32,000 bases of DNA from Candidatus Methanoperedens sp. (GCA_041494705.1 JBGQBI010000001.1:150001-182000); one strand, 5' to 3'. Shown: positions 27,201 to 32,000, counted from the first letter of the stretch. Translations and numbers: made by a program. The notes: a model not told the origin generated them from the letters alone.

Positions 27201-27287
27201 GTGCCATCTGGATATTCTGCAAAGGTTAAGAATTTATCCGAACCTCCGACAGAAAGCTATTTAATTCCTGAAAGTAGCATTTGGCGC

Positions 27288-27809
27288 GTGTCTTTACTTA
27301 CGCTTCTGGTTATAAGTCTCCTTTCGGGTTCATTGATCAAGCTTACCGATGATATTGAGGATAAAAACCTCAGCCGTAAAATCTACGCAATACCCACCGG
27401 CCTTGCTTATGGATTATTGATTGGGTACCTGATGATATCCGATACAGGCGCCGCCCTTCTTTTCGGCGGCATCGTCCTCGGGAACCTGATAACAGGCAAG
27501 ATTAACAGCGCCGGACATTATTCCGGTCTTGGCGCGATACTTACCGTGGTTTTCCTATACGGGATTAAGCTCTCTCCCCTTGTACTGCTAATAGCGGTGC
27601 TCGCATCCTTTGATGAGATGGGAGATTTAATGCACATGCCGAAATTCCTGGATTTCATATTCGAGTACAGGTTAATCCTTAAGCTGGGGGTACTGGTACT
27701 TGTTATCCTGAACATGCTGGGGTTGAACGCTTTATTAGTCCTTCTTGCATTCGATGCTGCGTATATGCTGACTGGCGGAATAACAGGGAGAGCCGCACAT
27801 GAGATATGA
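27288..27809 (+). CDS. small polytopic membrane protein with DDxxD and DxxxD motifs, unknown function
   Basis: The frame is open from 27201, but that would abut the hisI start with no promoter space. GTG 27288 lies about 25 nt after the TATA-like CTATTTAATT. Motifs are KLTDDIEDK and SFDEMGD between hydrophobic helices. The start is uncertain. Confidence 0.5.
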   Translation: MSLLTLLVISLLSGSLIKLTDDIEDKNLSRKIYAIPTGLAYGLLIGYLMISDTGAALLFGGIVLGNLITGKINSAGHYSGLGAILTVVFLYGIKLSPLVLLIAVLASFDEMGDLMHMPKFLDFIFEYRLILKLGVLVLVILNMLGLNALLVLLAFDAAYMLTGGITGRAAHEI

Positions 27810-28803
27810 TGTCGCAGTTATAGGTGCGGGGCCTGCGGGCTCTTTCGCAGCTGAAAAGCTATCTTCACTCGGTCATAAAACCCTGATAATAGACCCGCGC
27901 GATAAAAAAAAGGTATGCGCCGGTATCCTGACAGCGCAATATGCCGGGGAATACAAGGTAGATGATGCGTATGTAGAAAGGGAGTTGAAGGGTGTCCGGC
28001 TCTCATTTCGCGATATCAGGGCTGAAATAACATACAGGAAAGCGGTTGAGTATTCCATAGACCGCGAAGCTTTTGATTCTTTTAACCTGAATGAAGCCAT
28101 TAATGCGGGGGCATGGCTGAAAAAAGACATGGCACTGTCGTTAGAGGAAAATGGCTCCTCTGTTACTATCAGGGCAGCGAAAGGGCAAATAGTCGCAGAT
28201 TATGCAATCGTTGCATCGGGTGTGTCGGATTTAAGCCGTCTTTGCGGCGGCGCGAAGAAATATGCCTATTGTGTCCAGCAGAAAAAAGATGCAAAACCTG
28301 ATGATTATTTTGAAATGAACCTGATGCGTGGCGGTTACTCGTGGAGCGCGCCAAAAAAGAACCATGTGCTCACAGGTACTTCGTCGCTTAACGGTTACCC
28401 GGATATTCCAGGCGAGAGGGGTTTGATACCGCTTGAACCTGCTGAAAAAACATTCTCCAATAGATTTCTTCTTGCAGGCGATGCAGCAGGATTCGTATCA
28501 CCGTTTGAGGGCGAAGGGATATTTTATGCACGGCGTTCCGGGGAAATTGCGGCAGAAGTATTATCCGGCGCCATTTCAGGAAATAACGCTCTTGCCAGCT
28601 TCGAGAAACGATGGAAAAAAGAATTCGATTTTTCAACGCTTGCCATGCTTGCCCGATTTTTATCTAACGATATGGTTCTGGAAGCATTTGTGCGTGAAAT
28701 CAGGGACAACGAGAGATTTAATAAGCTTGTAGAGGATATTCTGACAAAAAAAAATAAGTTCCATATAAAAGACATCTCTTCATTGATTAAAACACTGGTT
28801 TAA
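27799..28803 (+). CDS. FAD-dependent oxidoreductase of the geranylgeranyl reductase family
   Basis: MRYDVAVIGAGPAGSFAAEKL (GxGxxG), LLAGDAAGFVSPFEGEGI and length about 330 aa. It overlaps the upstream gene end by 11 nt. Confidence 0.75.
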   Translation: MRYDVAVIGAGPAGSFAAEKLSSLGHKTLIIDPRDKKKVCAGILTAQYAGEYKVDDAYVERELKGVRLSFRDIRAEITYRKAVEYSIDREAFDSFNLNEAINAGAWLKKDMALSLEENGSSVTIRAAKGQIVADYAIVASGVSDLSRLCGGAKKYAYCVQQKKDAKPDDYFEMNLMRGGYSWSAPKKNHVLTGTSSLNGYPDIPGERGLIPLEPAEKTFSNRFLLAGDAAGFVSPFEGEGIFYARRSGEIAAEVLSGAISGNNALASFEKRWKKEFDFSTLAMLARFLSNDMVLEAFVREIRDNERFNKLVEDILTKKNKFHIKDISSLIKTLV

Positions 28804-28814
28804 GGTAGCGCAAT

Positions 28815-29642
28815 ATGATAGAAATCATCATAGAAAACATCATCTGGCTGGCACTCGGATTGCTTGTCATAGCCTCAGGTATTCCCCGCAATAATAAATT
28901 CAAGCTCCCGCTTACGGGTACTGGCTGGATGCTTTTTTCAGTCCACTGGGTTTTACAGTGGTCACATTATTATGAATTGGGGGATTATGTCAATGTAGCC
29001 CTGACCGTACTTGCAGCCATTTTCTGTGTTTTTATTGGTTTTATACTGATACGGCGGGACAAAAGCCTTCTCGGGAATATTAACGGCACAAGCACCATTT
29101 CCTCCATATTTATGATGACCACTGCTGCTGCCATAGGCGGGCTTTCATATTTTGTCTTTGCAGAAATCCCGGCAATGAATACATGGATAATTTCAACCGT
29201 AGCCGACCAGACCATATGGCTTGCCTCGGTTTTCGGGGTAACGATAACAAGGCTTGACTGGAACCTGATTGCGGTCAATGGCTATAAAGTCGAAATAATC
29301 CTTGCATGCACAGCAATAGAAAGCATTGCATTGTTTATCGGGATAATCACAAGCGCCAATGCCCCATTCAAACGAATAGCTCCGGCTTTTCTCATTTCGG
29401 TCCCTGTAATATACGGATTGAATTTGATAAGAAATGTTTTCGTGGTTGACGCCTATGGAATGACATGGTTTGGCGACCCGGATACGAGTTTCTATATCGC
29501 GCATACCGTGATAGCAAAAACAGGCTCCCTTGTCGCATTATTTATAATCGCATATGTGGTGCTGAAAATACTTCCTGAAATCATCGACATGATTGACGGT
29601 ATCTTGAACCTTGTACAGGGGGCTTTCAAGCATGCCGGCTAA
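28815..29642 (+). CDS. artA: archaeosortase (exosortase/archaeosortase family transpeptidase)
   Basis: Polytopic protein with EIILACTAIESIALF (catalytic Cys region), YGLNLIRNVFVV (Arg) and YIAHTVIAKTG (His). The subfamily is inferred only from Psd/PssA synteny. Confidence 0.7.
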   Translation: MIEIIIENIIWLALGLLVIASGIPRNNKFKLPLTGTGWMLFSVHWVLQWSHYYELGDYVNVALTVLAAIFCVFIGFILIRRDKSLLGNINGTSTISSIFMMTTAAAIGGLSYFVFAEIPAMNTWIISTVADQTIWLASVFGVTITRLDWNLIAVNGYKVEIILACTAIESIALFIGIITSANAPFKRIAPAFLISVPVIYGLNLIRNVFVVDAYGMTWFGDPDTSFYIAHTVIAKTGSLVALFIIAYVVLKILPEIIDMIDGILNLVQGAFKHAG

Positions 29643-30264
29643 AGGCTCCTTATCATGGATAGGCGGGATGATGCTGTTTACCCTCGCCGTGGGGTATATT
29701 TCGAAGAGTTTCACGGGATTGGTTTTTTATATATTGTTAATCGCATTCGTTATCGGCGCAATTCTGACGCTCTTTTTTTTCATATTCTTCCGCGACCCGG
29801 AGCGTTCTCCAACCGGGGACGAGGATGATGCGGTTTCTCCTGCCGATGGCAGAGTGATATCTATACAAAACCAGAAAATCTGCATTTTCATGAACATCCA
29901 TAATGTCCATGTGAACCGGGCGCCTCTTGCGGGTACGGTAACAAATATCGATTATAAGCCAGGCGGCTATATACCCGCGTTCAATAAGGATTCATTTGTG
30001 AACGAGAGAAACCATGTAGTGATAAATACTGATTCCAGTGTTCTTGAATTAACACAGATAGCAGGCATCCTGACGCGGCGCATCGTCTCGTACATCAGCG
30101 TGGGAAGTCATGTTAAAAGGGGAGAGCGCATCGGGATGATACGTTTTGGCTCGCGTGTGGATGTAATAATTCCCGAAGGATATGTGTTTATCATCAAAGT
30201 GAACGACAAAGTCAAAGCCGGATGCACGATAATCGCCAGGAAAAAAGAGAAAATAACGGGGTAA
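29632..30264 (+). CDS. psd: archaeal-type phosphatidylserine (archaetidylserine) decarboxylase proenzyme
   Basis: ATG 29632 overlaps the archaeosortase stop. N-terminal TM helices, RDPER, the NVHVNRAP...G pattern and the FGSRVD self-cleavage site. Confidence 0.75.
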   Translation: MPAKGSLSWIGGMMLFTLAVGYISKSFTGLVFYILLIAFVIGAILTLFFFIFFRDPERSPTGDEDDAVSPADGRVISIQNQKICIFMNIHNVHVNRAPLAGTVTNIDYKPGGYIPAFNKDSFVNERNHVVINTDSSVLELTQIAGILTRRIVSYISVGSHVKRGERIGMIRFGSRVDVIIPEGYVFIIKVNDKVKAGCTIIARKKEKITG

Positions 30265-30277
30265 TAAGGAGATAAGA

Positions 30278-30961
30278 ATGGGACAGAATATCCTGAAACT
30301 TATAAAACCTGCTGATGTCATTACGCTTGTTAATGCGCTCCTCGGGTTTGCCTCGATAATAATGACGGTCAGGGGACAGTTCGATAGCGCGCTTGTGCTG
30401 GTTCTCGTTGCAGTAATAGCAGACGGGGCAGACGGCGCAGTGGCGCGTTACTCAGGATTCGGGGTTCTTGGCGCAAATCTTGACTCGCTTGCTGATGTGA
30501 TAGCTTTTGGTGTGGCGCCTGCGCTTTTAGCATTCGTTTTTCTTGCCAATACAGGATATATGGCATGGATTTTTTCAGGACTATTCCTTGCCTGCGGCAT
30601 ACTGCGCCTTGCCAGGTTCAATGTCGCCGGGAAAAAGGACGGTTTTGAAGGGATTCCCATAACGGCGGGAGGGTTTGTTGTGGCTCTTTTCCTTCTCATC
30701 AGGGATTATGTAGGTTATTTTGATTATGTTTTTATTCTTCTGCTTGTGAGCTTATCTTTGCTTATGATAAGCAACATAGATTATCCCAAATTGAAAAAAC
30801 CCGTTATCCTTGCGCCAATGTCGATAGTGCTTGTTTTTGATATTGCGGTTTTTTATCTGGGTTATCCGGGTTTGGTAAAAGAAACGTCATTGCTCCTGTT
30901 TATTATGATTTTTGCCTACATCCTGAGCCCGCTAGGAAGGAGATTCTATGTCAGAAATTAA
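30278..30961 (+). CDS. pssA: CDP-alcohol phosphatidyltransferase (archaetidylserine synthase-like)
   Basis: DGADGAVARYSGFGVLGANLDSLADV matches DGx2ARx8Gx3Dx3D. Polytopic. AGGAG lies upstream of the ATG. Confidence 0.8.
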   Translation: MGQNILKLIKPADVITLVNALLGFASIIMTVRGQFDSALVLVLVAVIADGADGAVARYSGFGVLGANLDSLADVIAFGVAPALLAFVFLANTGYMAWIFSGLFLACGILRLARFNVAGKKDGFEGIPITAGGFVVALFLLIRDYVGYFDYVFILLLVSLSLLMISNIDYPKLKKPVILAPMSIVLVFDIAVFYLGYPGLVKETSLLLFIMIFAYILSPLGRRFYVRN

Positions 30962-31304
30962 TGAACGCGATATAGCTGTGTTTGAAGCCGGTATCAAGCT
31001 CGGCGCGCTGTACCACCAGTTCATTGGAACGCCAATAAATGTCGATACCGTTGATGGTCTTGAAAGAATAATAGAGGATAGCATCGGAGTCCAGCCTCAT
31101 GTTAGAAGCGTGAGTGTTTCCATTGACCGCGAGATGGTCGGGAAAAAGCAGAATCCAAAATTTGGGTACTGTGAACTGGAAGGGCGGATGCTGCATGTGA
31201 GTTTGCAGGTATTGTATAAAAATATCATAGCCACGGTGGAACTGGCGTATGATGAGGGACTGGATTACCCGATGATGAGTGTTAAGAAGATTGAGAAAAT
31301 GTAA
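30948..31304 (+). CDS. mptD: archaeal dihydroneopterin aldolase MptD-like protein
   Basis: 118 aa. FEAGIKLGALYHQFIGTP is the motif I associate with the MptD (archaeal DHNA) family. It overlaps the pssA end by 14 nt and has an AGGAG SD. Confidence 0.6.
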   Translation: MSEINERDIAVFEAGIKLGALYHQFIGTPINVDTVDGLERIIEDSIGVQPHVRSVSVSIDREMVGKKQNPKFGYCELEGRMLHVSLQVLYKNIIATVELAYDEGLDYPMMSVKKIEKM

Positions 31305-31314
31305 GGTATAATTA

Positions 31315-32000
31315 TGGGAGAAAAACCAAAGGTTTTTCAGAAAAACAAAAAGATAAAACCCACAGAATTATTTGTCAGTGCCTCACCGAATGCCGTTGAT
31401 AAAGCTATGAAAGCCTCCAGTGACATTGATGAGGCAAAGCTGGGCAAAAATCGAGAAGATGAAAGTATGAAAAGCTTTGAAAAGATGAAAGGAATAGCGG
31501 AAATTATTGTTGGATTGGCGTCATTGTTTGCAATATTACAGTATGTATATTTATTTGCGAATCCACCAATAGCATTATCTATATCTCTTTCTGGAGAGCT
31601 TGGTGTTGATGGCAACAGTTCTGTGATAACGCCAGTCATAAAGTTGGAAAACTTAGGTAAGGAAGTGCCGATAAGATATAGCGTAGGGATTGCAAAAATT
31701 ACGAATCTTTCTGCGTTTGATTCATATTATTCAGAATCACCCACTTTAACAATAAATGCAGCCGAAATCAATACGTGTGGATTTACAAAGTGGTACAATA
31801 AGGGAGCTCTTATTTTTCCAGGTAGTGTTTCTGAGTATAATCTACATAGTGTTTGTTTGAGGGCTTTTCCAAATTTTGCACGTTATGAGATAACTTCAAA
31901 TATTGACATTACGTACAACAATGCAGATTATGATTATGTGATGAGGAGTTGTGATTACTCTGCTACTTATGTAATCAATACTGGAAATGGAAAGGGTTAT
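31315..32000 (+). CDS. hypothetical membrane-anchored protein, 5' part (runs off the window)
   Basis: ATG 31315, with the frame open for 228 codons to the window end. It is therefore missing from the ORF track. One TM helix (IAEIIVGLASLFAILQYVYLF) is followed by a Cys/Tyr/Asn-rich extracellular-looking domain. The region looks AT-rich by eye. Confidence 0.6.

Follow-up and report, generated by a model that had tools for sequence, protein, structure and literature searches.

The archaeosortase ArtA belongs to a described gene cluster in archaea: the synteny of artA with pssA and pssD has been reported for Methanosarcina, and the Haloferax homologues of PssA and PssD are required for ArtA-dependent processing and lipidation (PMC7157517). 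The archaetidylserine synthase that was characterised in vitro takes unsaturated CDP-digeranylgeranylglycerol (as cited in PMC7157517). Geranylgeranyl reductases (GGRs), in turn, saturate archaeal lipids, quinones and polyprenols, and both their route to these substrates and the reason for their many paralogues are open (PMC10821996). According to the same review, GGRs act on lipids yet have no membrane segments, and the GGR of Methanosarcina acetivorans pairs with a ferredoxin; the terms "membrane protein", "gene neighb" and "synten" are absent from its text (PMC10821996). Here we analyse a locus in which genes of both kinds stand together, in a window of 32,000 nucleotides from Candidatus Methanoperedens sp. 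(GCA_041494705.1 JBGQBI010000001.1:150001-182000). Open reading frame (ORF) calling places six genes on the plus strand between 27288 and 31304, in the order smTM (a small polytopic membrane protein), GGRl (a shortened GGR-family flavoprotein), artA, psd, pssA and mptD (Table 1). The genome of the window comprises 2.06 Mb in six contigs and is 99.5% complete.

The comparison of this locus with related genomes led us to regard it as a composite operon, which is probably assembled from three parts: a class-wide core of artA, psd and pssA, the passenger gene mptD, and an optional, movable cassette of smTM and GGRl that would encode a membrane-docked reductase of prenyl chains. The genomes surveyed, ~550 in total from two phyla, are samples of their groups. 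Among 53 Methanoperedenaceae genomes, GGRl and smTM had identical presence sets (30/53) and were always abutting. The cassette was absent from the other 23, of which 13 are at least 90% complete and which include all four genomes of three other genera of the family; ArtA was found in 52 of the 53, and nearly all cassette-free genomes keep it. Its coordinates put the cassette directly in front of artA in at least 22 genomes, several others being cut by contig ends, and away from artA in three (G418, G414 and G445). In G418 and G414 its neighbours inside the contig are genes for GATase, TauE and NAD-synthase, and the genes artA-psd-pssA-mptD occupy a different contig without it; in G445 it follows an HdrA-like gene, and the next 860 nt are non-artA. 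One more genome, G446, retains a relic just upstream of artA, a 32-residue GGRl C-terminus with 72% identity (L106 6970-7059), which is direct evidence of a cassette deletion. A tree of concatenated core proteins from 19 genomes, in which G446 is sister to G445, and G418 is sister to G410 (a genome with no cassette), indicates at least four changes of cassette state. Outside Methanoperedens, a single-sequence search of 151 genomes of the class found no smTM, and neither smTM nor GGRl was found within 8 kb of artA at the loci of the sampled families. The cassette is a tightly coupled pair whose presence and position have changed without regard to artA, by gain, loss and relocation, and the best reading of this distribution would be its recruitment to the head of the artA operon in some Methanoperedens only.

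The core, which had been called established when the window was first read from its sequence, is real and already published (PMC7157517). The window's genome has a single ArtA, which with 245.4 bits exceeds the TIGR04125 cut-off of 75 and covers positions 2-268 of the 271 positions of the model. Its residues C165 (in CTAIES) and R206 are invariant across 28 ArtA loci of the class Methanosarcinia, and they are presumably equivalent to the Haloferax catalytic residues. Genome-wide, four proteins matched TIGR04126 above its cut-off, and nine clear PGF-CTERM proteins were recognised by their C-terminus, made up of PGF(G/E), a run of hydrophobic residues and a basic tail. The classification as ArtA and the presence of these sorting signals answer two checks proposed in the sequence-only reading, whose statement that the window itself encodes no PGF-CTERM-type substrate also holds. 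Most other Methanoperedens genomes contain one or two additional ArtA paralogues, ~47% identical and above the TIGR04125 cut-off, and loci of such extra copies lack psd and pssA (L032 8001-8780, L033 7989-8780, L035 8001-8792).

Psd was identified by PF02666 (131 bits, E 5e-38) and by NF003685 (237 bits vs 183), and contains the Gly-Ser self-cleavage motif as FGSR at residues 171-174. PssA, of the CDP-alcohol phosphatidyltransferases (PF01066), carries the CDP-alcohol motif from residue 49 (D49-x2-DG-x2-AR...G-x3-D-x3-D) and reached 128.6 bits on TIGR00473, above the cut-off of 107, and 184 bits on TIGR04217, under the cut-off of 200. Both enzymes scored better on general archaetidylserine models than on the NCBI 'protein sorting system' models (NF038086, NF038088), whose cut-offs were missed (PssA 93 bits vs 200, Psd 165 vs 240). 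Moreover, psd is the one PF02666 gene genome-wide and pssA encodes one of just two CDP-alcohol transferases, the other being located at C3:305545; because of these copy numbers in a genome of such completeness, neither gene seems to be dedicated to anchoring. Methanoperedens membranes are rich in phosphatidylethanolamine (PE), monomethyl-PE (MMPE) and dimethyl-PE (DMPE) lipids (PMC6581649), and psd and pssA, as predicted housekeeping genes, must also supply bulk PE-type lipids.

In a synteny sample of ~16 kb around artA (28 loci from five families of Methanosarcinia, 23 of them with the main artA copy), psd comes after artA in all 23 main-copy loci, pssA in 22, and mptD directly after in most. 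The aldolase MptD itself matched PF04038 with 135.5 bits vs 25, over positions 2-108 of 108. The position of mptD straight after pssA (loci L036-L057) is seen in Methanoperedenaceae, most Methanosarcinaceae and Methanotrichaceae, and the stop codon of pssA often overlaps the start codon of mptD. We consider mptD a conserved passenger gene, the function of which is unrelated to the lipid or sortase genes, and its conserved presence implies that adjacency in the artA operon need not mean a common function.

The second line of evidence for a separable reductase module comes from the relatives of smTM. Close homologues, 122 in number, are all Methanoperedens-like, and a profile hidden Markov model (HMM) search of 1.84 billion representatives returned 488 relatives of mostly ~175 aa; those that could be named or placed are all archaeal (Methanothermobacter, Micrarchaeota and Thermoplasmatota). 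Gene neighbours outside Methanoperedens were annotated partly by tblastn with few queries. In Thermoplasmatota the family is present in 16 of 201 sampled genomes, and in the best-scoring subtype smTM is located 20-234 nt upstream of a same-strand GGR-family gene at 8 of 9 evaluable loci, the ninth having its GGR-family gene 2.6 kb from smTM. These partner genes belong to three separate GGR clades. In ANME-1 (Methanophagales), 14 of 38 genomes have a member of the family, which lies 3-5 kb from two GGR paralogues. Since the order smTM-then-GGR recurs across phyla and the pairing within Methanoperedens is strict, the two proteins may constitute a two-protein unit, in which smTM and GGRl would be physical partners.

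GGRl is an extra, fourth paralogue with the catalytic motifs and the fold of GGRs. The motifs kept are GxGxxG (GAGPAG at residue 9), Cys40, which aligns with Cys47 of the Thermoplasma GGR 3OZ2, RxxFD, YSWxxPK and LAGDAAG. Its AlphaFold2 model (pLDDT 89.2) gave 3OZ2 (E 1e-24) and 3ATQ (TM 0.81) as best Foldseek matches. A paralogue alignment showed that GGRl is without ~26 residues after the YxWxFP motif, including a GxG that is deleted there, and it does not match PF22578 (GGR_cat), which GGR genes elsewhere do match. Three full-length GGR-family genes are found elsewhere in the genome, and the canonical digeranylgeranylglycerophospholipid reductase among them is encoded at C2:22085-23263 (NF041080 190 bits and NF041160 286 bits, vs 48-50 bits for GGRl). 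Cassette-free Methanoperedens genomes keep three or four canonical GGR copies, which ruled out the idea that the cassette replaces one of them. A search of 301 genomes from the same phylum but from other genera gave no GGRl orthologue (best match 35% identity), and in the GGR family tree GGRl stands on a long branch as a separate clade, restricted to Methanoperedens, with ~370-aa Methanothrix and Methanosarcina paralogues and a 611-aa Methanoperedens protein as sisters. This 611-aa protein (L032 1120-2955, G121:C4; 618-aa counterpart in G412) has a GGR domain with 246 bits on TIGR02032; in G121 it is encoded near a second artA, and this proximity, at 5 kb and on the opposite strand, was taken as coincidence.

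As to smTM, the sequence-only reading had drawn attention to two Asp-rich motifs, and both are indeed present (DDIED at residues 21-25, DEMGD at residues 109-113) and largely invariant, in a protein that is strictly coupled to GGRl: D21, D22, D25, D109 and E110 do not vary in 22 homologues, and only the last Asp of DEMGD is variable. Within Methanoperedens the invariant residues are K18, D21, D22, D25, K71, H77, Y78, D109, E110, Y127, R128, K132, D156 and Y159, and across the whole family K18, D21, E110, R128 and Y159 are conserved. The AlphaFold2 model of smTM (pLDDT 89.6) has eight helices, and, to judge from hydrophobicity, the conserved charged residues would lie mostly in loops on one membrane face. 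A profile and structure search, which had been suggested for this product, matched no named family or solved fold. Neither smTM nor 45 family members matched Pfam or NCBIfam; the smTM profile hit nothing below E 2 among PDB sequences; a Foldseek comparison with the PDB found nothing at E 0.001 or lower; among 48,161 chains compared by VIA-align the best Z was 7.0, for part of a helical bundle only; and the ESM Atlas returned unnamed archaeal clusters only. An unfiltered HMM search over all ORFs of the genome found no smTM paralogue, and no smTM-GGR fusion was seen among proteins of 595-2000 aa, which is weak evidence, this being the sole length range covered. A DDxxD motif alone is not diagnostic of kinship with UbiA-type or trans-prenyltransferases. 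The possibility that smTM is a divergent CDP-archaeol synthase was rejected, a canonical CarS being encoded at C5:26687 (179 bits).

For the composite operon we propose the following scheme. PssA would make archaetidylserine, and Psd would decarboxylate it to archaetidylethanolamine; by analogy with Haloferax, ArtA would cleave PGF-CTERM proteins and anchor them on archaetidylethanolamine. Alongside, at the surface of the membrane, smTM might bind or present a phosphorylated isoprenoid lipid via its cluster of DDxxD, DE, K and R residues, and GGRl, a soluble FAD-dependent enzyme with no membrane segment of its own, might then hydrogenate the double bonds of this lipid. The substrate of the cassette may be an archaetidyl lipid, a dolichol or a quinone.

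Several findings weigh against this scheme. GGRl matched TIGR02032 in two stretches with 128.4 bits, and the cut-off of 158.8 was not reached. The two GGR genes of ANME-1 are convergent; they lie beyond a KaiC-domain gene, and a gene of 1,000 aa stands between them and smTM. Other members of the smTM family are found in non-isoprenoid settings, namely fused to S-adenosylmethionine decarboxylase or next to a deoxyhypusine synthase gene: all eight long forms among the best 150 HMM matches are such fusions, and one Methanobacteriaceae relative follows the synthase gene. Finally, the lipid-binding role of smTM is a conjecture, since no solved fold matches this protein and no relation could be detected between it and prenyltransferases, CarS or any other lipid enzyme.

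The fusion proteins just mentioned are ~290-340 aa long and consist of an N-terminal smTM-family domain and a C-terminal pyruvoyl S-adenosylmethionine decarboxylase (PF02675). They are P0256, P0308, P0311, P0316, P0336, P0348, P0374 and P0388, and both of those named by source come from Micrarchaeota. In the window, smTM shares its operon with Psd, likewise a pyruvoyl decarboxylase. A second Thermoplasmatota subtype of smTM, 233 aa in length, is overlapped by a radical SAM/SPASM gene and flanked by genes for an FAD oxidoreductase and for a membrane protein of the Caroten_synth family (PF04240). The cluster around it (L118 4929-10127, L132 3636-10180, L119 4424-7717) also holds more radical SAM genes and a saccharopine-dehydrogenase-like gene, and from its gene content it looks like an undescribed lipid-modifying cluster. 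In Candidatus Alkanophaga (Alkanophagales, L077 5993-7608), the smTM homologue comes after a gene for a UbiE/MenG-like class I methyltransferase, with three MtaA/URO-D-like genes downstream.

A broader version of the composite operon may be put forward with low confidence, namely that the smTM family represents a new class of membrane subunit that hands isoprenoid lipids embedded in the membrane to soluble modifying enzymes, and that it has been wired into the artA-psd-pssA operon in Methanoperedens for finishing the anchor lipid archaetidylethanolamine. If this were true, the enzyme served would be a reductase of the GGR type in Methanoperedens, in Thermoplasmatota and in ANME-1, a radical SAM enzyme for the second Thermoplasmatota subtype, and the pyruvoyl decarboxylase domain within the Micrarchaeota fusions.

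The sequence-only reading had suggested that the six genes are one dedicated route which builds or tailors, perhaps by saturation, the lipid that anchors archaeosortase substrates; in this model, the lipid tailored by GGRl and smTM would be the archaetidylethanolamine with which ArtA anchors PGF-CTERM proteins. This is unlikely in our view. No gap or overlap within 27288-31304 is longer than 14 nt, which would fit such a route, but the same string includes mptD, which shows operon membership without common function, as well as psd and pssA, the sole copy and one of two CDP-alcohol transferase genes, which argue against dedication to anchoring. Likewise, the fact that at least 22 of 30 carriers have the cassette immediately before artA, and one more genome a relic there, must be set against the 23 genomes, out of 53 from Methanoperedenaceae, that lack the cassette (13 being at least 90% complete) and nearly all have ArtA, and against the three genomes in which it is unlinked from artA. 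Since the characterised archaetidylserine synthase works on an unsaturated CDP-lipid, a later reduction step near pssA and psd is plausible and chemically sensible; however, the similar cassettes in Thermoplasmatota and the other remote smTM loci had no artA, psd or pssA match within ~7 kb either side, in a search with Methanoperedens queries that very divergent copies could escape. Of the two outcomes which the sequence-only reading had named as speaking against itself, one was observed: the six-gene order was not seen beyond the genus, GGRl and smTM not being found beside artA in Methanosarcinaceae, Methanotrichaceae or the other sampled families of the class. The other was not observed, GGRl being neither the only nor the canonical reductase of the genome. 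A saturation of the anchor lipid by the cassette is possible but unsupported, with adjacency within one genus as its basis.

It is more improbable that the cassette reduces another isoprenoid, such as the side chain of menaquinone (like AF0648 and MenJ) or dolichol, and that its place next to artA is incidental. GGR paralogues with such roles are documented, including a Haloferax GGR paralogue that acts on dolichol (PMC10821996), and GGRl is extra to the canonical lipid reductase; however, GGRl reached just 42 bits on the MenJ model, and nothing links the cassette with glycosylation genes. The genome does contain two MqnA/MqnD-family genes, but futalosine-pathway genes are equally present in cassette-free Methanoperedens genomes, and MqnA/MqnD are missing from one Thermoplasmatota genome with the smTM-GGR pair. 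We rejected the menaquinone link, as the MqnA/MqnD genes do not track the cassette. Very improbable, finally, is the view that smTM does not handle lipids and is a small transporter of cations or polyamines, or else a generic anchor in the membrane, its pairing with GGR being a genomic habit: the decarboxylase fusions, the deoxyhypusine synthase and saccharopine-dehydrogenase-like neighbours (the latter beside a Thermoplasmatota subtype) and the numerous conserved acidic residues, which would suit the binding of cationic amines, speak for it, but the co-occurrence with GGRl is strict (30/30) and the two genes overlap or abut, smTM precedes GGR genes of three clades in Thermoplasmatota as well, and the second subtype is tied to radical SAM/SPASM and Caroten_synth genes, an isoprenoid-like setting.

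Table 1. Genes of the operon and the putative promoter element upstream of it (window coordinates).
Feature	Position	Strand	Assignment
TATA-like box TATTTAAT, ~27 nt before the smTM GTG	27258..27265	+	read by eye
smTM, 173-aa polytopic membrane protein, first cassette gene	27288..27809	+	uncharacterised archaeal family
GGRl, 334-aa shortened geranylgeranyl-reductase-family flavoprotein, second cassette gene	27799..28803	+	TIGR02032, 128 bits
ArtA, archaeosortase A	28815..29642	+	TIGR04125, 245 bits vs cut-off 75
Psd/Asd, archaetidylserine (phosphatidylserine) decarboxylase	29632..30264	+	PF02666; NF003685, 237 vs 183 bits
PssA/Ass, archaetidylserine synthase	30278..30961	+	TIGR00473, 128.6 bits vs 107
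MptD-type dihydroneopterin aldolase, methanopterin pathway	30948..31304	+	PF04038, E 1e-39

The gene calls and junctions reported in the sequence-only reading, with their overlaps of 11, 11 and 14 nt, were all confirmed. smTM starts with the GTG at 27288, and 21 homologues begin at the same residue; an alternative longer frame from the GTG at 27201 would abut hisI. The overlap of smTM with GGRl, read from the sequence, is 11 nt (27799-27809), and is followed by a gap of 11 nt before artA, an 11-nt overlap of artA with psd (29632-29642), a gap of 13 nt between psd and pssA, and a 14-nt overlap of pssA with mptD (30948-30961). Because no gap exceeds 14 nt and the GTG has the TATA-like box 27 nt in front of it, co-transcription of the cassette with the artA operon is likely; the box is a possible promoter, from which a leaderless operon transcript might start. 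Scans for bacterial promoters and terminators gave counts at shuffle level and are uninformative in an archaeon.

An AT-rich ORF of 275 aa opens 9 nt past mptD, occupies 31314-32000 of the window and runs on to ~32141. Its product would have a head rich in Lys, a single membrane helix, a domain enriched in Asn, Tyr and Cys, and a C-terminal helix that carries a basic tail; it matched no family and is poorly conserved among relatives. We considered it as an ArtA substrate in view of the C-terminal helix and basic tail, and rejected it for having neither a PGF motif nor a TIGR04126 match.

The artA/pssA/psd cluster was known; what is added here is the optional smTM-GGRl cassette and its recurrence in other archaeal lineages. 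A conserved but unannotated membrane protein whose gene lies, in three lineages, just upstream of GGR-type genes or (in ANME-1) near them is a testable candidate for the link between GGRs and the membrane. For archaeosortase biology the locus also holds a caution, since a tidy six-gene operon joins a class-wide core, an optional cassette and a passenger gene.

Compared with the artA-pssA-pssD system of Haloferax and Methanosarcina (Haft 2012; Abdul-Halim 2020, PMC7157517), the locus has the same three families, in the order artA-psd-pssA, and likewise the conserved Cys and Arg of ArtA and PGF-CTERM substrates in the genome. It differs in that the genome has no second psd and, besides pssA, just one other CDP-alcohol transferase gene, psd and pssA being predicted to serve bulk lipids as well, and in that the operon adds mptD and, in some Methanoperedens only, the two-gene cassette. 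With the archaeal GGRs (Thermoplasma Ta0516, 3OZ2; Sulfolobus 3ATQ; the paralogue AF0648), GGRl has the FAD Rossmann fold, the Cys, YxWxxP and GDAAG in common; in contrast to them it is ~60 residues shorter, forms its own Methanoperedens clade and is always preceded by the gene of a polytopic membrane protein, not of a ferredoxin. The GGR and ferredoxin genes of M. acetivorans are presumably MA1484 and MA1485, and the plant enzyme ChlP has LIL3 as its membrane anchor. In both of these systems, as would be the case for GGRl, a GGR-type enzyme needs, or is kept in place by, a small protein that is encoded nearby or bound to it, but smTM, with six to eight helices, conserved charges and no iron-sulfur motif, has no homology to either the ferredoxin or LIL3.

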